The notes beneath the pieces are model-generated. The model had not been told where the DNA came from, ran no database searches, and saw nothing but the letters and a program-made list of their open reading frames with translations. The position numbers and the translations under genes are program-made. DNA of 64,000 nt from contig CAVQKH010000006.1 in assembly GCA_963712995.1 (NCBI GenBank), forward strand, positions 16,454 through 80,453, in the 5' to 3' direction. How positions within the stretch are numbered: the first letter of the stretch is position 1; the number at the start of each line of letters is the position of its first letter. Positions 41,336 to 61,925 of this stretch are shown here, one piece after another. The stretch comes from an uncultured Actinomycetota bacterium. Its GTDB lineage: Bacteria > Actinomycetota > Actinomycetes > Mycobacteriales > Pseudonocardiaceae.

Positions 41336-41390
41336 AGCGCCGCTGTCCCAGCCAACCCGCGGCGGCACAGACCGTCAGACAGTTCGTCTA

Positions 41391-43409
41391 GTGTCCAGTC
41401 TCATGGCTGAGTTGGTGCTCCAGGCAGGCGACGGCCACGTCGCGCGACTAGCTCACGAATCAGACGCTGTTCGAGCGGTTGTCGAGATGGTTTGGAATGC
41501 AGTCGACGCGGAAGCGTGGAACGTCTCCGTTCGGATAGAGCGCGAGGATCTGCTCGGTGCGATTATCGCCATCCACGTTGAGGATGACGGCCACGGCATC
41601 AATGTCAACGAGGTTGAAGCCGACTTCGGCCGTATTGGCGACTCTTGGAAAGCCCGCAGTACGCGATCAAAAAACGATGTTCGTGGTCTACATGGCAGCC
41701 TCGGCGAGGGAAGGCTACGAGCTTTCGCCCTGGGCACTCGTGTGCGTTGGCGGAGTGTTGGCGAGGACGCTACGGGAGCGATGCATGAGGTCATCATCGA
41801 TGGTCAGCGGGCGAAACGCAACATCTTCCGTTGGGACTCAACCCCAGTATCAGGTAGCGAGCAAGGCACGATCTTCAGCGCGTACAACGATGAGCAGCGC
41901 AGTCTCGGGGCACTCGAAGCTGACACGACCCTGCCCACCTTGCGCTCCCACTTCGCGCCTATTCTTCTACATAATCCCGAGCTACAGATCAGCTACGATG
42001 GCAGCTCTCCGACCCAACCCGGAAATTGTCGAAGACACGTCGATGAGTGTTCCTATCGGCACAGATGGCCTACACGGTAACCTCCAGCTACGGATCATCG
42101 AATGGCGCCAAGGCAAACATCGGGCAATCTATTACGGATCTGACGATCAACACTTCACCTATGAAGAAGACGGCTCGGACGTTGAGAGCCAGTTCCCCTA
42201 CTCAGCGTATGTTACGTGGCCGAACCTGCGTGATCAAGCGAACTATCTGAGTCTCGGCGAGCTCTACTCCGAGCCGACCAGAGATGTTTGGAGGGCCGTC
42301 CGCACGGCGATCAGGGAATATTTCGCCATGCGGCGTCGACAGCGACGCCGGAGCAAGTTGACCGCTGGAAGGATGCCGGAGTCTATCCCTACAAAGGCGC
42401 ACCAGCTTCCGAGGCGGAAAGAGCCGAGCGAGCCGTTTTTGATGTCGTATCGGGTGCTCTCAGTACGCATATTCCAAGAAGGGATTTAGTCGGCGCCCGT
42501 CTGACGCTAGCGCTTCTACGGGACGCGATTCGACACGAGCCTGAAAGTTGACGGCCGTGTTGCACGAGGTGGCGTCTCGAACCCCGACGATTCTGAGACG
42601 CCGACGCGCCTCTTGACTGAGACGACCTTAGCCTCGATTATCAAGTCTGCCAATGTCGTCGCAAGCCGAAACAAGTTTTTGCTGGCACTCAATCATCTTC
42701 TGTTCGATCCTGACGACTCGCCGATGGTCGGCGAGCGGGATCACCTACACCGAATCCTTGAGGGCGAGCTCTGGATCTTCGGTGAGGGCTATAACATGAT
42801 GAACAGCGAGAAGGGTTTGACACAAGTGCTCCGTACCCACCTCAAGCTGTCTGGCCTACCCGACAAGAATGTTACTACCGTCAAACGATGGACGCAAAGA
42901 CCGGCAGAGTCGACCTTCACCTTGCCGCCCGAGCCCAGGAGCATGACCGAGTCCGTCATCTGATTGTCGAGTTGAAGGCACCTGACATTACGATTGGCAG
43001 GAAAGAACTCGACCAGATCGAGGACTATGCCAACGTCCTTGCCTCAAACGCGCAATTCAGCAGTGCAACTGCACAGTGGGACATCATTCTCGTTGGGACG
43101 AAGCTCGACGACCTCGCAAGAAACCGCATTCACAATGATGGCTTCGAGGTTGGAAGCTTCGGGTTCGCGACCAGCACGGGGGCACCGCGTGTAACGGCGT
43201 TTGTGCGCCGCTGGCGCGATGTGCTTGACGAGAACAAGCGACGCCTTGACTTCCTCACATCGGTTCTCCAGCACGACCCATCAACGCCCGAGGGGCTTGG
43301 ATGGATGCGAGAGCACTATGCCGATGTTTTACCTGACGACTTGGTGCAGAAGCAAGAGCCATCTGGCTCAACAGCCTCTGCGGATGCTCAGGACCCGGGA
43401 GCCGCATAG
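41391..43409 (+). pseudogene. GHKL/HATPase_c-type ATPase with C-terminal nuclease-like region, at least 4 frameshifts
   Basis: AVVEMVWNAVDAEA (N box), IHVEDDGHGI (G1 box), FGRIGDSWK. The reading frame then moves at about 41995, 42340, 42560 and 42890, ending ...LIVELKAPDITIGRKELDQIEDY... Confidence 0.65.
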
Positions 43410-44002
43410 CTCAAGTCGAGCCATATTCGGGATGAGTTACTTGTCGGAGCTTCGCCGGATTTCGGTACAGGTGATCCAGGATAGATTCCACGGAATCTTG
43501 CAGCTATCTTCGCGTCAGAAGCTTCGACCATATCTCCATGCGCTCCACGGTTGCGTAGTTTTCTCAAGTGGTGGGTCATGTCAGCGAGAGTATCGGGGAA
43601 TTTAGCCGCCAGGTCTTGCAGCTTGCGCTGAAGCGTTTTGTTCGAAGAGATGCCCTGCTCGGCACAGATGGCCTCCAAGATGTTTCCTATTCCTACTACG
43701 AAGCTTGTCGGGTCACTTGCCTTGGTCGGCAACGCCTTCTCGTACAACTCCCTAACCTTCTCGGGAAGACCGCGAACATCGGGTGGCTGAGGATAAAGTA
43801 TCGTTACTGGCCAGTCGGCGGGATCTTCATAGTGCCATTCGCGATAAGTATAAAAGATCAAACCTTCGCATCCTGGACACTGCATGACCCGTGCGTGAAT
43901 ATACCACTGATAATCAGTGAAGCCGTCAGGGTCAGCCACTATGGTCTCTGATGGTTCAAAGACTTCTCGCTGAGATCGCCGGTGAAGCCGCAATGACCAC
44001 AT
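43388..44002 (-). pseudogene. DUF4145-like protein, C-terminal frameshift
   Basis: HHLRKLRNRGAHGD motif (family from memory); the expected C-terminus DSVESILDHLYRNPAKLRQ lies in another frame, ending near 43421. Confidence 0.55.
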
Positions 44003-44141
44003 GGCATGCCAGGCAGGATACCAGTGTCCGGCCTCATGCGGCCTGAAGGCAATCTAAGATGTACCTGCCAGTCAGGAGGCACTTACGGGTAGCACCACAA
44101 CGATGCCGTGCTCACCATATAGTCCTGTAAGCGATGCCCTA

Positions 44142-44247
44142 GATGCACCTTGCGGAGGCCCTTGCGCACCCGTCCTGGGAAGCACGGCGGTTACTTGATC
44201 TTGCGGACACGTGGTAGGAGTACGGGCTAGCGAAGGGCTCCAAGGGT
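44142..44247. repeat. ~100-bp direct repeat, right copy
   Basis: Matches 41231-41335 with scattered mismatches. Confidence 0.85.
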
Positions 44248-44326
44248 TGACAGGCACCGAAACAGTAGTGTAAGTACCGGGTGTAGGCTCCACGCGCGTC
44301 GATCTTGACATCCGGAGGCGAGCACG

Positions 44327-44973
44327 GTGCCACCCAGGTTCAACCAGTCCAAGCTCAACGCCGCCATGCGGCAACTGAGCACCGCATCAAACGATCTCAA
44401 GCGGTACGGTCGGCAGCTTGAGGTCGCTGGTCGCGAACTTGATCGTAAGAACCGCTCGGCTGGAGATCAGCTTCGCCAGCTGCCCCGCAGCCAGCCCCGA
44501 GTCTCTGTGCCTGAACAGATCCTGCTCGACTCCGTCCGCGAGCACGTGACGGCTATCTGATTGATCGTCCTCACGACATTTTCCTGTCACACGCTACTGC
44601 CGATCTCCCTCTAGCCCGAGCCCTGCACGATGAGCTCCAAGCGCTCGGCGCTGAGGTCTGGATGGACGATTTCAGCATCAAGCTCGGCCAGAACATCGTC
44701 CAGGTAATCACCTAGGTATCTCGTTGTCCCGCGTGGGTATTGTGCTGGTGACGCCAGCGGCTATCGCCGGACGCTACTGGGTCGAGAAGGAGTTCTCGGC
44801 CCTCCTCAACAGCAAGGAGACCGTCATCCCGGTGCTGCATGAGGTTTCGTGGAGCCAGCTGGGCTGCATATAGTCCACTGCTGCACCTCAACAAAGGGCT
44901 GAGCACTGCGAATCGAACGCTACAGGAGATTGCGATTTTGATTGCTGGGACATTGGTTGATGATGCGGCATGA
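44327..44973 (+). pseudogene. TIR-domain protein, at least 2 frameshifts
   Basis: Coiled-coil N-terminus, then in other frames HDIFLSHATADLPLARALHDELQALGAEVWMDDFSIKLGQNI, GIVLVTPAAIAGRYWVEKEFSALLNSKETVIPVLHEV and SPLLHLNKGLSTANRTLQEIAILIAG. Confidence 0.6.
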
Positions 44974-45093
44974 GATGATACTGCTATCGACGCCTTCGCG
45001 CCCACAAGACTTTACTGGCAGGAGAAGTGGGCATCATGGGTGAATACGACTACCGCAGTCCGGGCTTATCCAAGCCTGCGGTAGAATGAATTC

Positions 45094-45643
45094 ATGAAAC
45101 GAATTTCAACGGAAGCGTATCAGGCGCTTCGTGATGCGTTGCCGGTCATCACGTGGAACAAGCGTCCCTTTGAGACGCTGCTGCGCACGTCATTACGTGA
45201 TCATCCTGAGTTGCTATCAAACTTGAACTTTGCCGACACCAAGCGGGCCGTGGCCGACGCTCTGGTTGACCGGCTTGTCCAGCACGAGGATCGATACCAA
45301 GAAGTGACATTACAGTTCATGCTCGAAATCGCTAGCATGGATCGCTTCCCTAACCTCGAACAGCTTAAAGATGATGCCGATCGGAGTATACGACTCAAAG
45401 AAGCAAGAAGTGCTGTTGCTCACCTACGATCCATCACGGAAAAATATGCATCGAACATTGAAGAGGCTGCTATACGAGATGCTGCTCGTAAAGCTGAAGC
45501 AGCCCAGAACGCGGCACTGAGACGCTTCAGCGACGACCTTGAAGCACTGCGAGTACGTTTTCTTGATCTACAGACCGAATCCGACGCTCACGCACGGGGC
45601 TATGCGCTTGAGTCACTTCTCGCTGACCTTTTTCTACTGTACG
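45094..45643 (+). pseudogene. 5' part of a gene truncated by the homopolymer block (about to enter a restriction-endonuclease/Mrr-like domain)
   Basis: 183 aa of normal sequence ending ...ESDAHARGYALESLLADLFLLYE, after which the frame reads only poly-Lys/poly-Phe. Confidence 0.5.
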
Positions 45644-47203
<1,560 letters not shown>

Positions 47204-47503
47204 GGGTAACTGCGACTACACGAGATTCATACGCCCCCAGCGCCTCAGTATCTGACTGAGATAGGAATACGCACTACAGTTGCAAGCTTGCAAGGTCGCA
47301 ACTGTTCTCGCGGATACTATTATAAATATGTTTGACAAATAGTCAACTATGGCCATTGACCTAGGCACGATGGCTCCAATTTACGCGCCCTGAACATCGC
47401 ATCTCACTGTCCTTAGCATACGCTTTAGCTGAGTCAGTGTTGGACGCAGTACCTCAGCACGGTTTGCCGCCTCCGCCAGCGGACACTCTTCGGAGTAGCT
47501 AGA

Positions 47504-48327
47504 GTGGCTCAGATGCAGATCATCAACACCACGTGGCGTACTCTCGACGGCTTGCAGCTGGCCGGGTCACTCGTCGTGCCAAACGAACCAGCCGACAGAG
47601 CGATCGTCCTGGTCCACGGCGCTGGCGTCGACCGTGAGGAGGGCGGCTTCTTCGCCCGGCTGGCCGAGGGACTGGGCAAGGTCGGCGTGGCGTCGCTGCG
47701 CTACGACCTGCGCGGCCACGGTCAGAGCGGCGGCCGGCTCGGAGAGGTCGCTCTGACGGCCCATCTCAATGACATCCGGGTCGCTCTCGCCCAGGTGCGT
47801 GAAGCAACCGGCGCACATGACATCAGTCTGTTGGGGACGAGCTTCGGTGGCGGATTGACTGCTTACTATGCCGCCGAGCTGGCCGACCAACTGACACGGC
47901 TAGATCTCAACCCGCAGCTCAACTACAAGGCTCGATATATTGATCAGAAGCCGTATTGGTCGAATGACTACCTCGACGACGAGGCGGCGCAAGCGTTCAG
48001 CGAAGAGGGTTACATTAGCCATCGGCCGGGTGTTAAGCACGGCCGGGCGTTATTGAACGAGGTGTTCTGGATCAGGCCGGTTGAAGTGCTTGGCGACATC
48101 AAGGCACCGACCTTGATCGTGCACGGCACCGAGGACACATTCGTCCCTGTTGAGTCCTCGCGGACTGCCGCCGAGCAGTTGCCGCCCCGCACAAGCTTGT
48201 AGAGATTGACGGTGCACAACATGGCTTCGCCGTAGACGACGACCCTCAGTACCTCAATCCGCAAAGCCAGGAGTGGCAGGCGTTCGTCATCCGGACGGTG
48301 GCGGACTGGTTGGCGGAGACTTCATAA
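47504..48327 (+). pseudogene. alpha/beta hydrolase, copy B (single frameshift near 48190, otherwise full length)
   Basis: VLVHGAGVDREEGGFF...GTSFGGG...PTLIVHGTEDTFVP, then a shift to KLVEIDGAQHGFAVDDD...ADWLAETS-stop at 48325-48327. Confidence 0.7.
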
Positions 48328-50040
48328 CTGTCGGCTGCGAGGTTGCGAGCGCTTCGCGCAACGCACGGGGTCCGGGCCGGTTGCGCCATGGCTTGAGGGC
48401 GGCCATGCCCACATCAGTTCTCGTTTGGTGCGCTGTGAGGTGGTAGATGAAGCGAGTTGGACGGCTTCCAACCCCGTGCTTGCTGCTTCATCCGGTTCGC
48501 CAGCAAGTGCCAATGATGACGTCCGGCGCGCGAGGAAATAGCCACGATCGCGGCGCGAGAGTTCGTCGGTGGATAAGACTTGACCATAAAGTGCTGCGGC
48601 CTGTTGGGGTCTGCCAGCCTCGATGTAGCAGCTCGCCGTCCGGAGCGTCGGCGCTTCTGGTTGAAAGGAGCAGCCGAGCTGGCCGGGCTTTGCATTGTCA
48701 AGCGCAATGTCAGCAAGAAGCTGACGAGCCAAATCAAGTTTCTGCTGAATGAGACTGATGGGCTCGCCGACCATCGCCAAGCCACGCGCCTCTTGCTGCG
48801 TCACTTCTGCACGTACTGACCTCGGAAGCTGCCATGGGCCGTACTGTGCAGCTTGGGCCAATGTCAAGACGCGTACAGCGTCACGGTCTTCATAGGCCAT
48901 TTGCGATTTTCGCAGCAAAATGTAGCCTTGTGCAGCAGTGTCGCCAGCCGCCTGCGCCCATTCAGTCGCGCGGTCATACCAGAAGCAGGCACGCCGAGGA
49001 TGGTGGAGGTGGCGGTACAGCAGACCGGCGAACTCGCACCCCGTGCTCCGACCGAAAGCAGTTCACTGCGCACAGCCTGTGGGACGTCACGGACACGCTT
49101 CTCGATAGCACCGAGAATACCGAGCACTACCGGAAGCGTCTTGGTGGGGCCAAGCACACCGTCGTCGGCTTCGCAGGTGTCGAGTTGACACCGGAAGTAA
49201 TCCACCACCGAGCCATCCATATAGCGGTGCGCGTCTGCCAGAGCGGCGGCGACATGATGCAGCTCGTCAAAGTCGAGATCCAATGAGAGCGATTCAATAG
49301 TTAACGGAAGCTCATCAGCTGGCAGACCATTGGAAATTTGTAACATGTCGAGAAGATTTCCGAGCCCGCTCGAAGCAAGGGCGTGCGGCTCCAACGGCAG
49401 CCACAGTGATTGGCCGTCTACGACCAATGGCAACGATATCCGTAGGGCGGGAGGTAACGGAGCTGGATAGGAATTTTTCGGCGTCCCGAGAATTCTTCGG
49501 CGATTACCGGCCGGATCGCTTCATCTGGCCGTTCTGGGTTAATGCTACTGCCCGGGTCTGGCCTGGCATGTCAAACCACAGAAGGTTAGGCGGTATCTTG
49601 AGCACCCGCGCCAGTACACCAAGGTGTCAAGCTGCGGATTGGCGGACCAGTCTCAATTCGGCTGATCTGTGGTTGCCGCAGGCCCACCATGAACCGGGCA
49701 GGAGTTAGCAGATGCCATCGGGACCATAGACCGCATAGTGATGCGGGTGAGTGCGGTAGGCGCGGGATACCCCACCGATGTGCTGGGCGGCGAAAGCTTC
49801 TTCGAACTGTTCGGTCTCCCAGAACTCGGCAGGCACCTGGGCGGGGCAATAAGCTTGTCACGCGAAGCACGCTGACACCGGGAACACTGACGCTCGGTGT
49901 TGTCCTTCGCCAGACGCGTGCCGCAGCGGCAGTAGTAGCGAGTGGTGAGCGGGATGCCACGGGCGCGCCCCTTCCGATTCCTTGTCCGATTTCCGGTGGG
50001 AGTGTAACAGTCCACCCGCCCCCATGATCCAAACCGTCTG
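48322..50040 (-). pseudogene. XRE/zinc-ribbon/TPR regulator, copy B, several frameshifts
   Basis: RYYCRCGTRLAKDNTERQCSRCQRASRDKLIAPP, GLRQPQISRIETGPPIRSL and TPR-like C-terminal pieces are spread over ORFs 49653..50132, 49586..50188, 48864..49433 and 48322..48918. Confidence 0.7.
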
Positions 50041-50315
50041 GCAAGCAAGAGAATCGCTCTACCAGCGTGGATACACCCATCCACTGTGTGGTAGGATGGG
50101 ACACGTCCGATCCCACTTCGATGATCTTCCATGGCCCCCAGGGCCGGGCTGAACGCTGAGCTGGTGTGGTCCTGAACATGCAGGACATCCCCGCTTCGCC
50201 AGTCCGGCGTTCCCCGGTTCTGGGTGCCGTCCAGCTGCGGGCAACGTATAGACGCCAGGAGGTACGAAAACCGTCGCCGATCCGATCTTCAGAGTTGGTA
50301 GGATGGAGTTACCCA

Positions 50316-50636
50316 ATGCCCGCCAAACACACCCTCAAGCGCAAAAAAGCTGAGCGAGCTGCCCATCGCCGCACTGCCGAAGTCGTTGACGCCCGGACCC
50401 TTCAATCTCATCTTTTAACGCCTGACGCTCTGGCCGCAGGCTTATCTGCTGCGGGCCGCTACATCGCCCTTTGCGGCCAGGACGTATTGCCTGCCAGCCT
50501 TACCGAACCGGGAAACGGGCGATGTTCGTTGTGTAAAGTGGAAAAACGATTCCGGCGCAGAGGGCGGGGGCGTGATGACTGGTGTGAACCGTCCTCCGTT
50601 GCTTCCAGGGTGGACGGGGCGAGAAGCCGTGACTGA
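50316..50636 (+). CDS. small Cys-containing protein, copy-B counterpart of 32685..32837 (fused or extended form)
   Basis: ATG 50316 after GGATGGAG; contains AAGRYIALCGQDVLPASLTEPGNGRCSLC. Confidence 0.4.
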   Translation: MPAKHTLKRKKAERAAHRRTAEVVDARTLQSHLLTPDALAAGLSAAGRYIALCGQDVLPASLTEPGNGRCSLCKVEKRFRRRGRGRDDWCEPSSVASRVDGARSRD

Positions 50637-50846
50637 CGAGGATTACCAGCTGCTGCGTGATCTGCGGAAGATGACGATAGCTGCGGCGCATTCTGCCACG
50701 GCGTTTTGGAAGATAATCTTTCACGGGATGACCAGATTGCTTTAGGCGGGAGTGGCTGGCGGGGATGGGGAGACGGTTTCAGGGAGAGGGCGTTGAGGAC
50801 GCCTGTGGTGATTGAGGGAGGAAGACGAGTGAGGCCTGCTCGGCAG

Positions 50847-50905
<59 letters not shown>

Positions 50906-51219
50906 TAGGCGGGGCGGTGTGAGAAAGGTGAGAGCCGACACCGAGAACCAACGCCGGTGGCTGGGTGTTTCTCGACCGGCACCGTCACGAGGGGGTGACG
51001 ATACGGTGGCGGCGGGGGGATGCAGTCGCTTATGTATTGAATGGTAAGAGGCTGGGCGACCACGGGATGATTGATATACTGGGCACTATTCCGGTGTTAC
51101 CGGGTGGGTGAGCTGATTTGGCGGAGGTGCGGGTGGTGGGGAAGAGGTGGGTAAGGGAGGGGTGAGGGACGAAGCGTTTGCCAACATTGGTTATTTGACT
51201 GGGAGACTTCAGATTACCG

Positions 51220-51546
51220 TCACGGTTCAGTTGCCTTGGAGTCTTGTTTCTCCATCAGTGTAAATTCATAACCAAGAATCTCAACTTTATCGCCATCGGC
51301 TGGTCGGACCCCTGCGCTAAAATCGTAAACAGTCGCCGGCTGATTTGGATTGAAGTGAATCATGAGAGTGCCAATGCTTTTGTTGGGGTTATGCGCCAAA
51401 GCGTGTTGAATACCGTCCATGTTCTCAGATAACAATCGTGACTTAGTAGCCAGGTAAGCGGTAAACTGAATCATCTTGAACTTTTCATGATAGTCGGCCG
51501 CCGAACCCAAGCCAGATGAATCGGGCCTTTCGTCGATCTTTGGCAT
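51220..51546 (-). pseudogene. hypothetical low-G+C gene; its open frame continues upstream to about 51700 without a start and abuts the IS end
   Basis: ORF MPKIDERPDSS...; the same frame is open upstream (..SHVCEQALEKFRGKIAQGAAWFSRPKLQKWLERQ) up to a stop next to the IS66-family left end at 51714. Confidence 0.35.
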
Positions 51547-51713
51547 TTGGCGCTCAAGCCACTTCTGAAGTTTCGGCCTAGAAAACCAGGCCGCACCCTG
51601 CGCGATTTTGCCTCGGAACTTCTCTAGCGCTTGCTCGCAGACGTGAGAGGCTATTTGCGCAGCTTCCTCTGAGTGACCATGAGAGGAGCTGCATGAGAGT
51701 GTGCGTCAAATTA

Positions 51714-53384
51714 TGTGACTGGATAGGTCTTCCTGCGGGGCTGGTCCGTTCTGGCTCTGGCTCTGGGTCGGTGTGGTGGCTGGGCTTTGGTCGGCGTGTC
51801 GTGGGGGCTGATCCGGTTTGTGACGTGTTTTGATCTTTGAGTGTCTGAGCAGTCGCAGGTTCCCCGCCGGCCCTCGTATGAGGAGTTGCTGGTCGAGAAC
51901 GCTGGGTTGAGGGCTGAGAACGGCCAGTTGCGTGAGGGGCTGACCGCGGCTGTGGTGCGGATCGGTGAGCTTGAGGCGCGGTTGGGGATGACGTCGAAGA
52001 ACTCCAGCAAGCCGCCGAGCTCGGATGGGCTCACCAAACCGGCGCCGAAGTCGCTACGGGGGAAGTCGAAGCGTGGTTCGGGCCGCCCGAAAGGTCAGAT
52101 GGGGTTCACACTCTCGCCGGTCGATGACCCCGACCACAGGGTCGAGCACGAACCGCGGGCCTGCTGCGGGTGCGGGGCCGGCCTGGCTGGTGCGGTGTGG
52201 GCGGGGGTGGAAGCCAGGCAGGTGTTCGACCTGCCGCCGCTGCGCCTGGAGGTCACCGAGCACCGGCTGATCTCCCGTGCCTGCACGTGCGGAGTCATCA
52301 CCAAGGCCGACGCCCCGCAGGGGGTGTCCGCCCCGGTGCAGTACGGGTCGCGGCTGGCCGGGGTCGGGGTGTACCTGTTCCACGGGCAGTTCCTGTCCAA
52401 ATCCCGTACCGTCAGACTCTGGGTGACCTGTTCGGTGCGAAGATCGCCGCTTCCACGGTGGTGTCCTGGACCAAGCGGATCGCCGCCCAGGTCGTTGCCA
52501 GGGTCGTCCCGGTGATCACGGACCGGATCGCCCGCTCTGATGTGGCGCATTTCGATGAGACCGGGTTCCGCACCGCCGGGAAACTGCACTGGATGCACTC
52601 GGCGTCCACAAGTACCGATGTGCTGCTCACCGTGCATCCCAAGCGTGGGGTTAAGGGGATGGACGCCGCCGGGGTGCTTCCCCGGTTCACCGGGACCGCG
52701 ATTCATGACGCGTGGGCGCCGTATGACACGTACACCAACGTCACGCACGCCCTGTGTAACGCCCACGTCCTGCGGGAACTCGTCTACGTCGTGGACACCG
52801 CACCGAAACCCCTCAGGGTTCTGGCCACTCAGGCGATCGACGCCCTCGTGGAAATCAAGGACCTCGTCGCCGAAACCACCGCCATGGCAACCGTGATGGC
52901 GACGACCGCTGGGCCGGCTGAGCATCTGAACCCGCATGACCTCACCCAGCGCAAGGACGAGCAGGCTCATGTGCTGCGATCAGCGCTCGTGCTAGGCAAG
53001 AACGCCACCGCGGGGCGGGCCACGAAGCTGGAAGCCAAGTACAACACCTTGTTCACCCGGATGATTAACCGGTGGGAGGACTACCAGCGGTTCACCCACG
53101 ACCCCGCCGTAAGTTTCGATAACAACGCGGCTGAGCAGACCATCAGGATGCCGAAACTGAGGGTCAAGGTCTCCGGCTGCATGCGGACCCTGAGCGGCGC
53201 CGAAGAATTCGCCGCGATCCGCTCCTACACCGCCACCGCTGTACGACAGGGCCAGAACATGCTCGACGTCCTCATCCACGCCGCCGACGGCGCCCCCTGG
53301 ATCCCCGCCACCTGACCCCCGTCACGCCCAACCGCGGTCACGCGGCGCATCACCATGCCAAAAACCCGACACCTATCCAGTTAC
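51714..53384 (+). mobile_element. IS66-family insertion sequence (single-ORF type)
   Basis: Terminal inverted repeats GTGACTGGATAGGT (51715-51728) and ACCTATCCAGTTAC (53371-53384), 13 of 14 complementary; no obvious target-site duplication. Confidence 0.65.
51841..53315 (+). pseudogene. IS66-family transposase with one frameshift near 52400
   Basis: SKNSSKPPSSDGL, zinc-finger-like CCGCG...CTCG, then in the next frame DLFGAKIAASTVVSW...AHFDETGFRTAGKLHWMH...HDAWAPY...LCNAHVLREL. Confidence 0.75.
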
Positions 53385-53974
53385 GCGCAGCGAAAGCGAT
53401 TTCGCAGAACGGGCGGCGGCGTCGAAGAAATTGCGATTAGTCAGTGGTACTGGTTGGGCTGCCATCCAAGAGTTGTTTGGGCAAGGGGCTCAGGCAACAG
53501 GTGACGGTGAAGGCTCGCGGGGGCGGGCGCGGAAGAGCTGAAAAGAAGGTACTACACCGCCATTGCCCTCCCTCGGGCACCAAAGGGCTACGGGCAGCAA
53601 ATCACGCTGCCCGTAGCCCACCTACCACTAGCATTCCCCGGTGATTGAATCCCGCCACAATAATCTTCCCGATTTGCCTTGGCATCGGGCGCAAGAGATG
53701 GAAAAATGAAAGGAGAAAAGAAATGCAAGAATCGAACAATGGAAGGATAAGCGGAATGCCAAGTACGGCGAACTGCCTACCTACGATCACACCGAACAAG
53801 GCGTGGCCGATGACCATGAAACTATTCAGGAGGCCAGCGTCGCCCACCAACGGCGCATCGAACGCAACCGCGACGTCCGAGAGCAGTTGATCCAGCAGCT
53901 CAATACCGGCGCTTTAGCTATCACCGCCCCACCCGGAACCCGAGCTACCCCTGCAAGCGCACCGCAGCCGACTC

Positions 53975-55713
53975 CACGGGACCTCGTGCCGCACTCTACC
54001 TGCGGGTCAGCACCGAAGAACAAGCCCATAAAGGCGGTGAGGCTGAAGGCTACTCACTACCCACCCAACGCGATGCCTGCCGACTCAAGGCCCAAGATCT
54101 CGGCGCCATCGTCACTGAGGAGTACGTCGAAGCGGGCGATTCTGCCCGCTCAGCCAACCGTCCCGAGCTGCAACGCCTACTTCGCGACGTCAAACAGAAA
54201 CGGTTCGACTATGTCATCGTCCACAAGATCGACCGCTGGGCACGCTGGAAGGAAGACGACGTTCTGCTCACAGCCGCCCTTGCCCGCGTCGGCACCGAAC
54301 TCATCTCGGCCAGCGAGTACTTTGACGACACTCCGGCCGGCCGCTTCCACCGCAACGTCATGGCCGACGTCGCTCAGTACCACTCCGACAACCTGTCGGT
54401 CGAAGTCCTCAAGGGCATGAACAAGAAAGCCGAGAAAGGTGGGACACCGTTCCGGGCTCCGCTGGGCTACCTCAACCACCACGAAATTGGCGCAAACGGC
54501 GCCGACGTACGCACTGTCATCACCGACCCCGACCGCGCTCCCCTCATCCGCTGGGCCCTGGAAGAATACGCCACCGGGCACTGGAGTGGCCGCGCACTCA
54601 TAGAAGCACTCACCCGTAAAGGCCTCACCACGCGCCCCACGCGCAACAAACTCGGCGAGCCGATCAGTATGACCACCTTCTACCGCTTACTCAGCAACCC
54701 CTACTACATGGGCATCGTCTGCTACCACGGCATCTACTACGAAGGCACCCACCAACCGCTGGTTGACCCCGAAACATGGCTGCGTATCCAGGACGTGCTC
54801 AGTACGCATCACCTGGCCGGAGAGAAAAGATCGCGTCCACCATCACTATCTCAAAGGCACCATATTCTGCGGAGAATGCGGCACACGACTGGTGTTTCAG
54901 CCGCCACCGCGGCAACGGCGGCATCTACGATTATTACCTGTGCCTGAGCCGTAAGACCAAACGGCGACCATGCAGCCGCACCGTTATTCGTCTGACGCCA
55001 TCGAAGCGGCTGTCGCCCGTTTTTATCGCAGCTTCCAACTCAGCCCCGCCGGGGTTGGGGCCATCCGCGAAGCGGTGAAGACCGAACTCCGCGCCGAGCA
55101 GGCCCAAGCCGAACAAGACCAGAGCCGTGCTCGTCGCCGCATCGCCGCACTCACCGACCAGCGCGCCAAGCTGCTTACTGCCCACTACACCGGCGCTGTG
55201 CCGCTTGATCTCTTGAAAACTGAAATGACCCGGCTGACCCGAGAGAAGATCGACGCCGAGAACGAACTGGCGACCGCCACCGCTACCCTCACCGACTTGG
55301 CCGGACAACTCGAACGAGCCCTCGCCGTAGCGGGCAACTGCAACCAGCACTACGCGGCGGCACCATCCCGAATCCGGCGACAGATCAACCAAGGCTTGTT
55401 CAAAGCGCTCTACCTACACCGTGACGGCGAAGTAGCGCACATCGAGCTGACAGAACCCTTCGCGCAACTGCTCGCAGACGACCTACTCTCCAGCGTCAGC
55501 GCCCAGGCAGCCCTGACCGGCGAGCCAGCCGACGAACAGAGCAGCACACGGGCAGGCACGGCTGACCGCGCTCGTCCGTCCGCCGTCCTGCGGACCGTCA
55601 TCACCGGTGACCAGATACACAAAGCGCCCCAGCAGGACCTGCTGGGGCGCGGTTTGCACAACGTTCGTCTGGTGCCCCCGGTGGGAGTCGAACCCACACT
55701 GCGGCCTTTTTAA
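53975..55713 (+). pseudogene. large serine recombinase, no start codon in frame and at least 3 frameshifts
   Basis: AALYLRVSTEEQ (catalytic Ser), FDYVIVHKIDRWAR, recombinase domain PLGYLNH...YYMGIV.YHG, zinc ribbon KGTIFCGECGTRL / YDYYLC, and a coiled-coil C-terminus, spread over 4 frames. Confidence 0.75.
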
Positions 55714-55715
55714 GA
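55671..55715 (-). repeat. direct repeat of the tRNA 3' half (distal att site)
   Basis: 55671-55706 is identical over 36 nt to 60478-60513 (GGTGCCCCCGGTGGGAGTCGAACCCACACTGCGGCC); similarity continues into the anticodon loop. Confidence 0.9.
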
Positions 55716-55921
55716 GGACTGGCTTCTCGAACTCGCTACCGCCTCCGACCTGCGATAGAGCGGCAAGCGATGAGCACCAGCACCCGACTTAGGCACGTAT
55801 TGGGCACAGCCCCTTGCACCTCAGGTGCTGCTGCAGTGTTGACCTGATGACGCGCACGACGAAGGCCCACGGAAGTCGCTGGGTTATGAGCCGGTTATGA
55901 GCCCGCAACCGCCCCCGCCAG

Positions 55922-56707
55922 CTAGCGGTCAGTGCTCTGGCACGCTCGGCTGCTCTTGGCGTCCGGCTCCGGCCACTTCTCGGCCATGGCGATCTGCTCC
56001 GACGTCACGACGACGCGATCGACTGCGGCGCCCTTAGCGCTCACGCCGTCGAGGATGGCGTCGGTCAGGTCGGCGCCCTCCAGGCACGCGTCGGTGAGGG
56101 TCGCGCCGCGAAGGTCGGCCCCAGTCAGGTTGGCGCCACGCAGGTCCGCCGTGTCGAGGTCCGAGTACCGCAGCACGGCGCCCCGCAGGTCGGCATCGCG
56201 GAGATCCACACCCACGAGCGAGGAACGTGGCGCCTCGAACCGGGACGGCCGTTCCTGCGCGGGGTCGTCGCTGATGACGTCGTAGCTACGTCCGAGCAGG
56301 ATGCCAGTCAGCGCCACCCCCAGCACCACCGCCGAAGCCAGCATGAAGACACGGCCAGCCCATCCGGAACCGAGGTACAACGCGAGGGCACCGGTCGTGC
56401 CCACGCCAGCCACGAGCACGCCGAACGGGCCGAGCACCTGACCTGCCGCCGCCGTCAAGGCGATCACCACCACCGGCCAGACCCAGAGCAGGCGATCCTT
56501 CGGACGGTCGGCGGGCGGCCACGGCTCGATCTCGTCCGCCGGGGTACCGCCGGTCCGGCGCACGACCGGGGACGACGCGCCCTCGTGCGGTGGGGTCGGG
56601 GAAGCGGGTTCGCCCTCGCCGAACTCCAAGTCGGCACCCGGCGGTGGGTTGGGTGCCGCAGACCCACCGTTCTGGCTCTCAGGCCCGTCTCCACCAGGTT
56701 TCGCCAC
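55922..56707 (-). CDS. membrane protein with C-terminal pentapeptide repeats
   Basis: Pro-rich N-terminus, 3-4 TM helices, then GVDLRDADLRGAVLRYSDLDTADLRGANLTGADLRGATLTDACLEGADLTDAIL. Confidence 0.75.
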   Translation of the reverse strand: MAKPGGDGPESQNGGSAAPNPPPGADLEFGEGEPASPTPPHEGASSPVVRRTGGTPADEIEPWPPADRPKDRLLWVWPVVVIALTAAAGQVLGPFGVLVAGVGTTGALALYLGSGWAGRVFMLASAVVLGVALTGILLGRSYDVISDDPAQERPSRFEAPRSSLVGVDLRDADLRGAVLRYSDLDTADLRGANLTGADLRGATLTDACLEGADLTDAILDGVSAKGAAVDRVVVTSEQIAMAEKWPEPDAKSSRACQSTDR

Positions 56708-56762
56708 GTGCGAATCGTGGCAGGGTCGCCGCCCGGATGAGTCAGCGAGGCGGCGTCGGCAT

Positions 56763-57776
56763 CTACTCCGGCGTCACCGACGTCTGCGGTTGCTGTTGCG
56801 GGACCTCGACCGGTGGCGGTTTCTGGTACGCCAGCGTCTCCTGCCGATGGTCGAACACTTTTCGCAGCGTCGCGTTGGTGATGCGTTCGTCCGCCGTGGT
56901 GTTCGGATGCGGGAGGTGCAGGCGTGCGTAGAGGTCGAAGCGGGACAGCTCCGTGAGCACGGCGACGCTGGTGCCGTACTCGTGTGCCACAGCCACCGCC
57001 CCGCGGTAGGCGAGAAAGGCGACGGTATAAGGAACTAGTGCCAGTAGCAGCCACAGGCCATGGCGCCACATCACCAAGACGGTCGTCAATGCCGCCAGCA
57101 GCGCCACGAACGTCGTGCGGATCGCGAGTTCGAGTTGGACGCGCTGGTTCTGTACGTACCCGATCTCTCGCTCGCCGCCAACCATGGCGAGGCGGGGAAC
57201 GGCCGTGATGGGATCCAATTCGTAGGCCCTCCCCACCAAGCGCTCATAACGGCGCAGGACGTTGCCAAGCCTGGTCGGCATCACCTCGTCCAGATACTGG
57301 GGATACGACGCGAGCGCCCGCCGCGATTCCGCGGCGACGATGGCGGCGCGTACCAGTTCGGGCGGCGCGGATTCGCTCCTCAATGCGAGGGTGGTGTCCT
57401 TGCCGAGCCACTGTGCCGGCAACTGGTCGCCATCCTCCAGGTTCGACTTGCGACGCCGGTGGTACATCGTCCTGGCCGTGGCGAGCTCGACCGCCAGGCG
57501 AGAGGTGCCCCAGTAGCCCTCCATGACCTGGATGAGCGCGAACTGCAGCGGGTTCAGCGCCAGCGCGATCACGACCGCGCCAAAGCTCGCCAGCAGCACC
57601 TCGGCGAGATTGATGTCGGCGAGCGCAGACCAGCGCACGCGATCGGACCCGCCGATCTGGACCAAGCCGTACACGTACACCACCAACACGGTCGCCGGCA
57701 GCAGACTCACCACGGTGAAATAGCGTCCGACCTTGGCAGCGCCCGACGAGAGGGTCGAGGCAACGTCCGCGCTCAT
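56763..57776 (-). CDS. 4-TM membrane protein of unknown family
   Basis: TM pairs at both ends flank a soluble segment of about 130 aa (…EVMPTRLGNVLRRYERLVGRAYELD…); start overlaps the upstream stop (ATGA). Confidence 0.65.
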   Translation of the reverse strand: MSADVASTLSSGAAKVGRYFTVVSLLPATVLVVYVYGLVQIGGSDRVRWSALADINLAEVLLASFGAVVIALALNPLQFALIQVMEGYWGTSRLAVELATARTMYHRRRKSNLEDGDQLPAQWLGKDTTLALRSESAPPELVRAAIVAAESRRALASYPQYLDEVMPTRLGNVLRRYERLVGRAYELDPITAVPRLAMVGGEREIGYVQNQRVQLELAIRTTFVALLAALTTVLVMWRHGLWLLLALVPYTVAFLAYRGAVAVAHEYGTSVAVLTELSRFDLYARLHLPHPNTTADERITNATLRKVFDHRQETLAYQKPPPVEVPQQQPQTSVTPE

Positions 57777-58186
57777 CGGGTGATCGGTGCCTTGCGTTCA
57801 CACGCCTGGCAGGTCCATTCCTTTGCATCAGGGCATGCCACCAACCGCCCCTTCCTACACTCCGAACACTTCTGCCTCGCGACGTAGTAGACGTGGCCAC
57901 CGACACACCGCCAGGGATCGCCCCCGTCCCTGGTGCCGAGCGACCAGCACACCGGACAGAGAGCGCCGTAGTACCTGTGCGCTCCGCAGAACCACACCTC
58001 ACCGTCCTCGCAGACTGCGATCTTCTCGCAGCCCCGGCACTGGTGCCACAGCACCCAGCCATGGGTACCGCATTGCCCGCTGTGTCGCGTCTGCAACGAT
58101 AACTGCTTCTGACATTGCGGCAACGGACACGGGTACGCCGCGCCCGACCTCGACACTCCAGGAACCCTCCAGCCTGGCGCGACCAT
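57773..58186 (-). CDS. Cys-rich multi-zinc-ribbon protein
   Basis: 137 aa with paired cysteines CPLPQC, CRGC, CPVC, CSEC, CQAC; contains a TTA codon (58100-58102); start uncertain. Confidence 0.55.
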   Translation of the reverse strand: MVAPGWRVPGVSRSGAAYPCPLPQCQKQLSLQTRHSGQCGTHGWVLWHQCRGCEKIAVCEDGEVWFCGAHRYYGALCPVCWSLGTRDGGDPWRCVGGHVYYVARQKCSECRKGRLVACPDAKEWTCQACERKAPITR

Positions 58187-58736
58187 CAGAGCACCCGTCG
58201 CGGGCAGGAGAACGGCCGCCTATCAAGTCCCACGCCAGTCACCCCCGTAGAACCATGACCGTATAGGCCAAAGCGTAAGGGCTCCCGCACCGGCTTTAAA
58301 TATAGAGCCTCCATGATGATGCCGTGGGCCCCTATGGTCTCGATTTGGTCGATACAGGCTCACCAGTTCCACCTCGGCGACTCGCCGCACACCGTCACCC
58401 TGCGCGTCGCGGGTGGCCTGTTTACCTCCTACCGGCGTCTACAACGATCGCAGTTGCCGGAGAACGTGGTCTGTACTTCCTGGCACTCTGCCGTGGGCCC
58501 GGTCCGGATACGCGCCATGTCGATCAGACATGGCACGTCGCTCGTGTTGACCGGCGCTCGTTTTGCGGACTAAGCCGTCACCGAGAATGCCGATCTGGGA
58601 TCCGGGATCCGGGTTTGGTCGGCACGGTGACGTGCTCGTCGGCAGGGTGACAAAGCGACCCGGCCGTGTGGTGGTCGGGCATTGGCACGGTGATGGCCGG
58701 ATCTGGGCGTGACAGGGCCCCGATGGAGCGTGTTGA

Positions 58737-59315
58737 TCAGGTTCTCAGGGGAGGGGCCAGAAGGTGGCCGTGGCTGAACGCGCCGATGACCGACCACGGC
58801 GGGTCTGGATAACCGAACAGCTCCCGGTAGCGCAGCGCGACGCCGGCGAGCAAGTTCAACGCGTGCCCGAGCAGCGTGGGCTGCGCCGCCGGGCGGATGA
58901 GCAGCTCCCGATCAATCCGCGTGCAGTGCGCAACCGCGCGCTGGTAGAGCCACCGCGCGTGGTACTCAGGAGCGCGGCGCAGCCAGCGGCGCACCGTGGA
59001 GACCGGCCGGTCCAGCGTGGCCGCGATGGTCCGGAAACCTGACCCGGCGGCCTTGGCGGCCAGCGCGTGCCCGATCACTTCGGTGGCATCGGCGCGCCGG
59101 GCGCTCAGCGCACCGGGCAGCAGGATCTGGGTGGCCCCGCACTCAGCGCAGCGCGCTCGCCGGGGGGTCACCGTCAACGTGGCTGCTCCCAGCCCTCGCA
59201 CGGAGCGAGTGCGGGCGTGTCCGTACGGGCGCAGGGTTCCCGCGCACCCCGGACAGCGCATCGCCCCGGCGAGCAGGCTCTCCTCGGCCCGTTGCGGGCA
59301 GGACACGACGATCAC
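58737..59315 (-). CDS. DUF6431-like protein (zinc ribbon plus HTH; transposon-associated family, from memory)
   Basis: MRCPGCAGTLRPYGHARTRSV...RRARCAECGATQILLPG...RPVSTVRRWLRR. Confidence 0.55.
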   Translation of the reverse strand: MIVVSCPQRAEESLLAGAMRCPGCAGTLRPYGHARTRSVRGLGAATLTVTPRRARCAECGATQILLPGALSARRADATEVIGHALAAKAAGSGFRTIAATLDRPVSTVRRWLRRAPEYHARWLYQRAVAHCTRIDRELLIRPAAQPTLLGHALNLLAGVALRYRELFGYPDPPWSVIGAFSHGHLLAPPLRT

Positions 59316-59832
59316 CGATCGCGACTCCGTTCATGCCGGGGAGGGTTTCCTACCACGCCGCCGCCGGGAAGGGGCCAGTTCGTGTGGCGCGGCGTCGATC
59401 GCGGCGATGTTCGTCACCTCGTTGCCGACGACCATCACCGCCCGCCGGCCCGCCGATCAACCTCGACCCACCGACGCCCTCCGCGCTCGGTCCACGTCGT
59501 CCTCGGCGCGGTGACGGTGCCGATCAAACGCACAGCTCCGACCGAGCCATTGGCATCGTCAACGACGAATCGCTCCCCGATGGTCGCCTTCCGCGATGAC
59601 GTTCAACACGCTCGCAGCCGGAATGAAGAATCTCCGGCGAAGACTGAAATCGGGTACGAGCCAATGCAGCCAACGCGATCGCTGCCGTTGAGTACAGTGA
59701 CCAACCCCGCCCGCCGGTCCGGCCCGCGCGAGCACGGCCGATAGGCCGCGCGCAGCAAGCGGAGCCAGACCGAGCGGGCAGGCGACCTGCGTGCACAGCC
59801 CGACCACGTCCGCTCCGCCGTAGGCGGCGCTC

Positions 59833-60342
59833 TTGATCCCAGAGTCCGGCCGGGGGGAACTGCTGTTAGACGAGTGGTGTCCGTCGGTTGGGACGGCGTG
59901 GTCGGATAGCGGTAACAGGCGAGACCAGCGACAACTCAAGCACCGGGCCAAGGGCGACACCCGCTCAGCTCCCTCTCCCCCAGAACTCACTCAGCTACTT
60001 CACGATCACCTGGCCATGCACGGAACCGATGCCGAGGGCCGACTATTTCGAGGGGTCCGCAGCGGGCGCGAGCTGGAGGAGAGCACCTATCACCGTGTGT
60101 GGCGTAAGGCCCGCCAGGCGGCCCTGACCGCCGAGGAATACGCCTCGCCGCTCGCGCGGCGGCCTTACGACCTCCGCCACGCGGCGGTGTCGACATGGCT
60201 CAACGCAGGCGTGCCAGCCACGCAGGTCGCAGAGTGGGCAGGCCACAGTGTCGCGGTTCTGCTGCAGATCTACGCGAAGTGCCTCTCGGGGCAGGAGGAA
60301 CTGGCTCGGAAGCGAATCGAAGCTCGGTTGCGTGAGGCGTAG
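59833..60342 (+). pseudogene. tyrosine recombinase/integrase, C-terminal catalytic half only
   Basis: LKHRAKGDTRSAPSPPELTQLL, RRPYDLRHAAVSTWLNAGV, WAGHSVAVLLQIYAKC (R, H-x-x-R-like, H, Y catalytic elements); the N-terminal SAM-like and core-binding parts are missing upstream of about 59820. Confidence 0.75.
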
Positions 60343-60380
60343 CAGGTGCGCACTTCGGCACGTATTCGGCACAGACGGCC

Positions 60381-60468
60381 GGTGAATACCGGCCGTAGCT
60401 GGGCACAGCCGGACAGCACCCTGCGGTCGCCTGACCTCATTCACGCAGGTCAGGGGACGATGCGGGTG
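60381..60468. repeat. copy R3 of the dispersed repeat, between integrase and tRNA
   Basis: See R1 and R2. Confidence 0.9.
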
Positions 60469-60477
60469 GTAAGGGCG

Positions 60478-60552
60478 GGTGCCCCCGGTGGGAGTCGAAC
60501 CCACACTGCGGCCCTTTTAAGGGGCCTGCCTCTGCCTTTGGGCTACGGGGGC
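60478..60552 (-). tRNA. tRNA with anticodon UAA (Leu/UUA by anticodon) but a class-I cloverleaf with a 5-nt variable loop
   Basis: Reverse complement GCCCCCG-TA-GCCC-AAAGGCAG-AGGC-A-GGCCC-CTTAAAA-GGGCC-GCAGT-GTGGG-TTCGACT-CCCAC-CGGGGGC-A-CC; perfect acceptor, anticodon and T stems; canonical GGTTCGA T-loop. Confidence 0.85.
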
Positions 60553-60602: not shown

Positions 60603-61925
60603 TCACGGGGCGGCGTTGGCGCGGACGAAGTCGGCTTTCGGGTCGTTGATCTGGCCCAGCGACACCACCTCGCGGCGGAACAGCAGGGCAGCGGTCCAGT
60701 CGGCCAGGATACGGACCTTGCGGTTGAACGTCGGCATCCGGCTCAGGTGGTAGGTGCGGTGCATGAACCAGGCCACGAAGCCGGTGAGCCTGATCCCGTA
60801 GATCTCCGCCACCCCGCGGTAGAGGCCCAGGCTGGCCACCGACCCCGCGTACCGGTGCTGGTAGTGCCGCAGGGCGTGGCCGCGGAGGTAGGCGATCACG
60901 TTCTCGGCCAGCACCTCGGCCTGGCGGACGGCGTGCTGCGCTGATGGGCTACAGACTGCGCTCGGGTCCTCGGAGGTCAAGTCGGGCACAGCTGCGCAGT
61001 CCCCGGCGGAGAAGACATCCGGGCAGCCCACCACCTGCAAACTCGCCTGGCAGCGCAGCCGTTTGCGGTCATCCAGTGGCAGATCGGTCTGCTGCAGCAC
61101 CGGGTTGGCCTTCACCCCAGCGGTCCAGACGATGGTGTCGGCGTCGAACTCGGTGCCCTCATCGAGGACCACGTGGCTGTTCTCCATCGTGGTGACCCGG
61201 GTGTTGAGGAAGATCTCGATACCACGCCGGGTCAACCGCTTCACGGTGTAACGGCCCAGCTTCTCGCTGACCTCGGGCATGATCCGGCCGGTGGCCTCGA
61301 CCAGCACCCAGCGCATGTCCTGCGGCTCGACGGTCTCGTAGTACCGGCAGGCGTAGCGGGCCATGTCCTGGAGCTCGGCGAGCACTTCGATCCCCGCGTA
61401 TCCCCCGCCGATCACCAGGAAACTCAGCAGCTTGCGGCGCAGCTGCGCGTCGGTCGTGGCGTCGGCGGCTTCCAGCCGGGACAGTACGTGGTTGCGCAGG
61501 TAGATCGCCTCGCCGATGGTCTTGAAGGCGATGCCGTGCTCGGCGAGCCCGGGGATGGGCAGCGTGCGTGCGATGGAACCCGGCGCCATCACCAGCACGT
61601 CATAGCCGAGCTGCTCGACGTTGCCGGCACAGTTCTCGATGGTGACGATCCGGTGGGCGTGCTCGACTCCGGTGACCCGGCCGCATACGACGTGGCAGCG
61701 CCGCAGCACCCGGCGCAACGGCACGACCACGTGGCGCGGTTCGATCGACCCCGCCGCGGCCTCGGGCAGGAACGGCTGGTAGGTCATCTGCGTCTGCGGA
61801 TCCACCACGGTGATGGACGCATCGCTCTGGCTGAGCTTGGACTGCAGCCCCAGCGCGGTGTACATCCCCACGTAGCCGCCGCCGACGATGAGGATGCGTG
61901 GCGGTTGAGCAGGCACACGATCCAT
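60603..61925 (-). CDS. ndh: type II NADH dehydrogenase (NDH-2)
   Basis: ILIVGGGYVGMY and VIGGGYAGIE dinucleotide-binding motifs; 440 aa. Confidence 0.9.
   Translation of the reverse strand: MDRVPAQPPRILIVGGGYVGMYTALGLQSKLSQSDASITVVDPQTQMTYQPFLPEAAAGSIEPRHVVVPLRRVLRRCHVVCGRVTGVEHAHRIVTIENCAGNVEQLGYDVLVMAPGSIARTLPIPGLAEHGIAFKTIGEAIYLRNHVLSRLEAADATTDAQLRRKLLSFLVIGGGYAGIEVLAELQDMARYACRYYETVEPQDMRWVLVEATGRIMPEVSEKLGRYTVKRLTRRGIEIFLNTRVTTMENSHVVLDEGTEFDADTIVWTAGVKANPVLQQTDLPLDDRKRLRCQASLQVVGCPDVFSAGDCAAVPDLTSEDPSAVCSPSAQHAVRQAEVLAENVIAYLRGHALRHYQHRYAGSVASLGLYRGVAEIYGIRLTGFVAWFMHRTYHLSRMPTFNRKVRILADWTAALLFRREVVSLGQINDPKADFVRANAAP

Follow-up and report, generated by a model that had tools for sequence, protein, structure and literature searches.

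The tRNA gene and its fold

Which amino acid does a short tRNA with the anticodon UAA bring to the rare codon UUA, and is such a tRNA a working part of the cell that carries it? Bacterial tRNA-Leu are in general class II. The stretch of DNA analysed here (the window, 64,000 nucleotides from an uncultured Pseudonocardiaceae bacterium) contains a tRNA gene with the leucine anticodon on a class I body, and the initial annotation had proposed that it might be a non-canonical UUA reader.

We observed that ARAGORN called a single tRNA in the whole window, a tRNA-Leu at 60478-60552 (-) with the anticodon taa at position 34. The Rfam model RF00005 matched 60480-60552 (-) from end to end, with 54.8 bits and E = 4.7e-9 (gathering score 29). 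The features of the gene are as follows.

60480..60552 (-): type I tRNA-Leu(UAA) with a short variable loop, 73 nt, G1-A73 (ARAGORN, Rfam RF00005, sequence, identity to the tRNA of MAG L014)
60517..60519 (-): anticodon U34 A35 A36 (sequence, ARAGORN, Rfam)
60515-60521 (-): anticodon loop C32-A38, CUUAAAA (sequence; same loop in nearly all of 65 aligned homologues)

Read from its 5' end, the tRNA consists of the acceptor strand GCCCCCG, UA, the D arm GCCC-AAAGGCAG-AGGC, a single A, the anticodon stem GGCCC/GGGCC around CUUAAAA, the variable loop GCAGU of 5 nt, the T arm GUGGG-UUCGACU-CCCAC, the second acceptor strand CGGGGGC and the discriminator A73. The long variable arm of bldA-type class II tRNAs (>10 nt, with a stem-loop) is absent. 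The initial annotation had described all of these structural details correctly, including the C-A mismatch in the D arm, as well as the anticodon and the class I shape (sequence, ARAGORN and Rfam). The mismatch, C13.A22, was the sole non-standard pair flagged in the Rfam alignment. A thermodynamic fold recovered three of the four arms (acceptor, anticodon and T) at -38.6 kcal/mol (z = -2.75), and the nucleotides of the tertiary interactions (U8-A14, G18 G19, U54 U55 C56 and A58) are all present. The loop also contains A36 A37 A38, a run that is typical for tRNAs decoding UNN codons.

At the 3' end, A73 is followed by CC (60479-60478) and then by a further C, giving ACCC. The CCA end is only partly encoded, and since its terminal A is not encoded, the tRNA would depend on the CCA-adding enzyme. 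Many relatives at the NDH-2 loci described below likewise lack an encoded CCA. A scan for sigma-70 promoters and terminators in 60300-60800, which covered ~250 nt upstream of the tRNA, returned none; such a scan is weak and uninformative for a high-GC actinomycete. The LeuRS gene and the rest of the tRNA set are located outside the window.

Orthologues downstream of NDH-2

The gene upstream of the tRNA served as the synteny anchor.

60603..61925 (-): gene of NDH-2 (type II NADH dehydrogenase), conserved neighbour upstream of the tRNA (Pfam Pyr_redox_2 and NDH2_C; 80 related loci)

Using the window NDH-2, we retrieved the best 80 NDH-2 loci from species-representative genomes and called their tRNAs with ARAGORN. 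In 72 of these best 80 loci, NDH-2 was followed closely, on its own strand, by a tRNA-Leu(taa) of 73-75 nt, and the anticodon UAA was retained in all 72, as had been read from the window gene. The loci came from Pseudonocardiales, Frankiales, Jatrophihabitantaceae, Geodermatophilaceae, Nocardioidaceae and Mycobacteriales genomes, and they include Pseudonocardia, Saccharopolyspora, Actinosynnema, Halopolyspora, Actinopolyspora, Gandjariella and Frankia. The best NDH-2 match (95% amino-acid identity) was a Pseudonocardiaceae MAG. The tRNA of the public MAG L014 was the same as the window tRNA, base for base, while that of L010, whose NDH-2 is 95% identical, differed by 1 nt; in both, the flank downstream of the tRNA differs from that of the window. 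As judged from these loci, the NDH-2-tRNA arrangement is ancestral.

We further examined the structure using 65 distinct homologues, in which the standard-cloverleaf pairs were counted and compared with two controls, namely 500 shuffles and partners slid by 1-3 columns. Standard pairs were found in 94.7% of the cells, as against 82.7% in the shuffled and 31-59% in the slid alignments, and 17 of the 21 stem pairs had changes on both sides. The covariation score was 0.345 (0.113 when shuffled), and the observed measures were matched by 0/500 shuffles. T8, A14, G17/G18 and A58 were invariant columns. Position 13-22 was non-paired in 64 of the 65 homologues, so that C13.A22 is a family trait and not damage. 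The variable region was 5 nt long in 62 and 6 nt in the other 3. The D loop of the window tRNA (AAAGGCAG) is 1 nt below that of most homologues, and this shorter loop (AAAGG) is common to the nearest relatives L010, L012, L014 and L019.

The post-NDH-2 position held a different form in one genome. In the Frankiaceae MAG BP_193 (L083:5429-5514), an 85-nt class II tRNA-Leu(taa) is present at the syntenic spot just after NDH-2; its variable arm forms the hairpin UGCUC-GCGA-GAGCA, and similarity to the type I genes is seen in its T arm and at the end of its variable region. The remaining relatives with a tRNA after NDH-2 all had the short form. The L083 gene hints at the gain or loss of a variable arm at one orthologous locus. 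We also observed that the post-NDH-2 orthologues of Pseudofrankia sp. BMG5.36 (L080) and Frankia sp. AgB1.9 (L082) have the acceptor GCCGGUG and the loop CCUAAAA, which places a C at position 33. U at this position is almost universal.

A family of short tRNA-Leu

When the 75-nt gene was compared by BLAST with phage and plasmid records, full-length matches of 75-87% identity were obtained, and those that were annotated were tRNA-Leu of 74-79 nt. Among the short tRNAs fetched, ARAGORN assigned UAA to those of Nonomuraea gerenzanensis, Nocardia farcinica, an Arthrobacter replicon and Streptomyces phage Genie2, and further to those of Sinorhizobium phage Phosso, cyanophage P-RSM6, Pseudomonas phage ZC03 and Myxococcus phage Mx1. 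Other anticodons were CAA in Tsukamurella, UAG in Thermobifida phage P318, AAG and CAG in a Nonomuraea plasmid tRNA array, and CAG and GAG in mycobacteriophage Myrna. The D arm GCCC-AAY(N)GGCAG-AGGC, A73 and a 5-nt variable loop were common to all of them, and the anticodons (UAA, CAA, UAG, CAG, AAG and GAG) were exclusively those of leucine. From these shared features, we take the fetched short tRNAs to be one homologous family with anticodons confined to the leucine box. As many of the BLAST matches were phage tRNA-Leu, a phage or element origin of the window tRNA was also considered; it was ruled out by the conserved chromosomal synteny.

We then compared the window tRNA with 40 of the 45 tRNAs of M. 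tuberculosis (Mtb). It was nearest to Leu-TAA (60/73), followed by Leu-CAA (58/73), well ahead of the others; the next-nearest were tRNA-Arg and tRNA-Glu, where the similarity was mainly in the acceptor stem. The type II tRNA-Leu have a D arm like that of the window tRNA (N13.A22, loop AAU-GGCAG); those of Mtb have G13.A22 and a similar D loop. An origin by anticodon mutation from another isotype, such as tRNA-Phe (whose loop CUGAAAA is one change away), tRNA-Lys or tRNA-Glu (with the same GCCCCC acceptor), was rejected, as these Mtb tRNAs scored far lower than Leu-TAA and Leu-CAA and their D arms differ.

The tRNAscan-SE sets of Mtb H37Rv and M. smegmatis (Msm) hold five tRNA-Leu genes each, of which CAG, GAG and TAG are type II (83-87 nt) and CAA and TAA are type I (74 nt) (PMC11541572 supplement). 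Each genome has exactly one tRNA-Leu(TAA), the 74-nt type I 'Leu-4', and the Mtb sequence is GCCCCCAUAGCCCAAUUGGCAGAGGCAGCGGACUUAAAAUCCGUCAAGUGUCGGUUCGAGUCCGACUGGGGGCA (PMC11541572 supplement). Mature 77-nt Leu-TAA reads were present in every listed Mtb tRNA-seq sample, at 1-25 each (PMC11541572). A short-loop tRNA-Leu(TAG) in mycobacterial tRNA clusters was noted by Behra et al. (PMC6582537). The window tRNA shares with the Mtb and Msm Leu(TAA) the 5-nt variable loop, the acceptor GCCCCC(G/A), the D arm GCCC-AAU(U)GGCAG-AGGC with C13.A22, the CUUAAAA loop and A73, with 60/73 positions identical. It differs from them by compensatory stem changes (7-66 is G-C vs A-U, with others in the anticodon and T stems) and by a D loop that is 1 nt shorter. 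We conclude that the window tRNA is, by all comparative signs, the syntenic orthologue of the mycobacterial Leu(TAA), with the synteny taken from the NDH-2 loci and the mycobacterial match from the sequence.

The charging of a short tRNA-Leu has been studied by Fan et al. (NAR 2019, PMC6614811) in S. coelicolor, where a type I tRNA-Leu(CAA) occurs alongside four type II species and there is only one LeuRS. In vitro, this LeuRS charged the type I tRNA-Leu(CAA) at 6.25 s-1 uM-1, compared to 14.2 for the bldA tRNA (kcat/Km ~44%), and the 5-nt variable loop and U8-A14 were important for charging (PMC6614811). The E. coli LeuRS was unable to charge it, and the S. coelicolor LeuRS did not charge the human mitochondrial tRNA-Leu(UUR) (PMC6614811). 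According to the citation in that paper of Pettersson and Kirsebom (2011), bldA can be replaced by the type I tRNA once its CAA has been changed to UAA. The window tRNA likewise has the 5-nt variable loop and U8-A14, and the engineered UAA version decodes UUA in vivo; however, the S. coelicolor type I anticodon is CAA, and the Streptomyces UAA reader, bldA, is type II. The window tRNA is tied to this biochemically tested tRNA through the mycobacterial CAA and TAA homologues, and not by direct alignment. With bldA itself, it shares the anticodon UAA, the codon UUA, the rare-codon setting and the high-GC actinomycete background, but bldA has a long variable arm and a developmental regulatory role, while the window tRNA has a short variable loop. 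The human mitochondrial tRNA-Leu(UUR) is also a type I tRNA-Leu with the anticodon UAA; it is organellar, has its own synthetase and is not specifically related in sequence to the window tRNA.

The short type I tRNA-Leu is thus an already known kind that is documented in Actinomycetota. The view that bacterial tRNA-Leu are class II, on which the initial annotation had relied, holds in general, but it fails in Actinomycetota, as S. coelicolor, Mtb and Msm all have type I forms. In this phylum, a short tRNA-Leu with UAA, CAA or another anticodon should not be taken as anomalous, and the window tRNA has a confident Leu isotype that is canonical for the clade.

The tRNA as an integration site

The tRNA had also been described as an integration site, and this was borne out. 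The following features were found downstream of it.

60478..60531 (-): tRNA-proximal attachment-site repeat, from the anticodon stem-loop to the 3' end (repeat search, pairwise alignment)
55671..55724 (-): tRNA 3' part, displaced to the far end of the insert (repeat search, pairwise alignment)
55725..60477 (no strand): inserted element of ~4.75 kb between the repeat copies (Pfam, GC3 gene picking, repeats)
55922-56707 (-): pentapeptide-repeat protein in the element (Pfam)
56763-57776 (-): element ORF, function unassigned (GC3 gene picking)
57773-58186 (-): element ORF, function unassigned, with a TTA codon (GC3 gene picking)
58737-59315 (-): DUF6431/HTH protein in the element (Pfam)
59833..60342 (+): probable C-terminal fragment of a tyrosine integrase, 169-aa ORF, convergent with the tRNA (Pfam PF00589)
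55617..55650 (-): terminator-like hairpin, 12-bp stem (10 G-C pairs), TTTGTGT tail (terminator scan; downstream flanks of relatives; BLAST)

The two repeat copies are 54 nt long, 93% identical and 4.8 kb apart, and they include an identical block of 36 nt (60478-60513 and 55671-55706, i.e. tRNA positions 40-73 plus CC). Two matches to a 25-nt probe of the T arm and acceptor were found in 0/100 shuffles. The distal copy has T31-A39 where the gene has C31-G39, which is a compensatory pair, and ACCA follows its acceptor stem. The difference at pair 31-39, on the 5' side of the identical block, suggests that this part of the distal copy came from the attP of the element, with strand exchange within the identical block.

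The hairpin at 55617-55650 begins 20 nt past the displaced tRNA end. We observed the same hairpin sequence directly 3' of the intact tRNA in L013 and L016, and in BLAST L013 7370-7722 matched window positions 55727-55373. As the hairpin directly follows an intact tRNA in these two relatives, 55617-55650 is the native tRNA terminator and the distal copy is the original 3' end. The insert is absent at the tRNA in L013 and L016, and the flanks of the other relatives are unrelated.

The integrase fragment matched PF00589 with E = 3.8e-6 and 27.2 bits against a cut-off of 27.1, over profile positions 67-167 of 172. We found no N-terminal part of the integrase, so the gene has probably decayed, and the element is probably now immobile. 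The geometry of tRNA and integrase in the window is also found in Tsukamurella and in phage REQ2. The Tsukamurella integrase, a neighbour of a type I tRNA-Leu(CAA), gave no tblastn match in the window, which ruled out the window remnant as an integrase of the Tsukamurella lineage. Temperate actinophages also integrate at this target: the integrases of Rhodococcus phage REQ2 and Gordonia phage Trax are adjoined by a copied 3' part of a type I tRNA-Leu (UAA-type in REQ2, CAA-type in Trax). Their attP are like the window site in that the copy runs from the anticodon stem-loop or the T arm through to the tRNA 3' end, the gene being rebuilt and a partial copy displaced. Unlike these prophage sites, the window has only a C-terminal integrase fragment, and its element is without phage genes. 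A 77-nt tRNA-Leu(taa) that ARAGORN called beside the REQ2 integrase (L094:2467-2543) was set aside as an attP core and not a gene, its 5' half being un-tRNA-like.

A repeat of ~95 bp with two hairpins (ACGGCCGGU...ACCGGCCGU and CCUGACCU...AGGUCAGG) occurs at window positions 60375-60469, 41127-41220 and 36472-36565, and the copies at 60375-60469 and 41127-41220 are 93-98% identical. One copy separates the integrase remnant from the tRNA end, and the other two are inside the older island described below; a similar sequence follows the L011 tRNA. This repeat could be an element-end or arm-site module.

TTA codons in the window

The TTA codon at 58100-58102, to which the initial annotation had drawn attention, is real, being codon 29 of the ORF 57773-58186 (-). 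In the likely core genes of the window, TTA accounted for 3 of 7133 codons (within 2387-3715 and 12008-13144), and in the island genes for 2 of 1880, with one more island gene affected besides ORF 57773-58186. Since TTA is also found in core genes, its presence at 58100-58102 near the tRNA carries no signal.

Identity and role of the window tRNA

The explanation that we hold with high confidence is that the window tRNA is a housekeeping tRNA-Leu(UAA), orthologous to those of its relatives and very probably charged by LeuRS, and that it served as the attB for an integrative element that has since decayed. It is, on this account, the chromosomal, vertically inherited tRNA-Leu(UAA) of this Pseudonocardiaceae bacterium and a member of the type I family. 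Charging with leucine by the LeuRS of the organism is expected from the homology and from the S. coelicolor work (PMC6614811). The tRNA is presumably expressed, and it would decode the rare UUA and probably UUG by wobble. The cell most likely has no other dedicated UUA reader, as is the case in M. smegmatis and M. tuberculosis. On the same account, tyrosine-integrase elements use the 3' half of the tRNA as their attB, a hot spot that begins with the anticodon stem-loop and ends with the CC. An element of ~4.75 kb inserted there, such that the tRNA was rebuilt exactly from the attP copy of the element and the original 3' end and terminator were moved 4.8 kb off. The insertion would have left ACCC at the present gene and ACCA at the original end; the rebuilt tRNA is intact, as it is identical to that of L014.

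A class I shape combined with a leucine anticodon might also be seen in the body of another isotype that brings a different amino acid to UUA, for recoding or deliberate mistranslation, as with tRNAProX/ProRSx or an allo-tRNA. We consider this extremely improbable, since the nearest Mtb tRNAs are the two type I tRNA-Leu and no other isotype, and the homologous family uses Leu-box anticodons only. UAA is kept at one syntenic locus across several actinomycete orders, and type I Leu(TAA) is the only UAA tRNA of Mtb and Msm. Leucylation of a homologous type I tRNA-Leu has been demonstrated in vitro (PMC6614811), and Pfam found no dedicated synthetase gene adjoining the window tRNA. Nothing thus points to recoding or mistranslation, and the proposal of a non-canonical reader with uncertain charging gives way to an orthologue of documented type I tRNA-Leu (PMC6614811, PMC11541572). 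It is also very improbable that the gene is a pseudogene, or that it was brought in or damaged by the mobile element and is not the tRNA with which the cell works. The 3' part from position 40 on did come with the inserted element, the CCA is incompletely encoded (CCC) and no promoter-like site was found in 60300-60800; however, the rebuilt gene is identical to the tRNA of L014, a relative without this insertion, and its four stems are fully paired save for the family-wide C13.A22. The ancestral NDH-2-tRNA arrangement and the missing CCA of many relatives also speak against damage. Both a recoding tRNA and a dead gene are further contradicted by the covariation among the homologues, as they are by the conservation, the spread of anticodons and the tRNA sets of the mycobacteria.

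The housekeeping identity would be compatible with an added regulatory layer of the bldA kind, in which a limited level or charging of the tRNA gates the TTA genes, including those of the island. TTA is very rare in the window (the counts given above), the Mtb orthologue reads low in comparison to Leu-TAG, the S. coelicolor LeuRS charges type I less efficiently than type II (PMC6614811), and bldA is a precedent. We nevertheless regard such a layer as unlikely and see nothing in the window that points to it, as the TTA codons are not confined to island genes but also occur in core genes of ordinary appearance, the window contains no TTA-bearing developmental regulator that we could find, and the literature examined described no such role for the mycobacterial orthologue. 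A broader joint scenario, in which UUA is ancestrally decoded, in much of Actinomycetota, by the type I tRNA-Leu(UAA) of the conserved NDH-2-tRNA locus alone, this tRNA interconverts with class II through gain or loss of the variable-arm hairpin, and in this lineage it gates TTA genes in a bldA-like manner by low abundance or slower charging, is in our view a little more doubtful still. For annotation, the housekeeping reading means that the gene should be named tRNA-Leu(UAA), and the region downstream a tRNA-linked genomic island.

Phage-borne short tRNA-Leu(UAA)

We also scanned IMG/VR viral contigs for the signature of the type I tRNA-Leu(UAA), GGCAGAGGCA-N5-YTTAAAA-N15-16-TTCRA. The signature was present in at least 120 contigs (L096-L215), and in 118 of these ARAGORN called a tRNA-Leu(taa) of 73-79 nt with the same D arm. 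The fetched viral stretches, among the matches listed, had a G+C of 0.28-0.65 with a median of 0.41, and with this median most of the listed contigs are probably not from actinophages. Further phage loci with a short tRNA-Leu(UAA) are L002, L003, L090, L091 and L093, and isolates with it include P-RSM6, ZC03, Mx1 and Phosso. We found no description of a short phage tRNA-Leu in the literature searched. If the LeuRS of the hosts acts like that of E. coli, the phage-borne tRNAs would stay uncharged in non-actinobacterial hosts. The abundance of the short tRNA-Leu(UAA) in low-G+C phage contigs and the class II form in one Frankiaceae genome could interest tRNA biologists; neither is a property of the window.

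The wider variable region

Mobile elements are often found inserted beside tRNA genes, and a second, older region lies past the native tRNA end.

29400..55670 (no strand): older variable region with lower G+C (BLAST of L012, L015 and L067 vs the window; composition; Pfam)

This region contains an IS66 transposase, serine recombinase fragments, hydrolases and HSDR_N proteins. In BLAST comparisons, the post-tRNA flank of the relatives resumed at ~29.4 kb of the window or lower, so that ~31 kb downstream of the tRNA is variable and island-like. The post-tRNA sequences among the relatives were many and mutually unrelated. A search of the window for a third, degenerate copy of the tRNA 3' part gave nothing above 29/44 matches beyond the two known copies; the outer boundary near 29.4 kb is thus placed by the comparison of relatives only.

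Several other observations were made in the window. A 1196-aa ORF at 24637-28227 (-) encodes an nSTAND1 NTPase followed by ~14 WD40 repeats, and the 126-bp tandem repeats at 24737-26432 are the WD40 units. In an A+T-rich patch at 44000-48000, the G+C falls to 0.46 at 44-46 kb and 0.32 at 46-48 kb (genome ~68%); the ORF 46463-46972 (-) within it had no Pfam match. Near the patch are a DUF4145 protein at 43388-44002 (-) and HSDR_N proteins at 38243-38986 (+) and 42888-43409 (+). A module of ~3 kb is duplicated (29590-33116 vs 47499-50676, 73-95% identity, 17.6-17.9 kb apart); it carries an alpha/beta hydrolase (29524-30051 + and 47504-48202 +), and part of it is also found downstream of the L013 tRNA. 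The region 52170-55713 holds an IS66-family transposase at 52170-53315 (+) and the 'Recombinase' domain fragment of a serine recombinase at 54360-54947 (+). ORFs in other frames beside this fragment suggest a frameshifted large serine recombinase, inside the older island and next to the native tRNA terminator.
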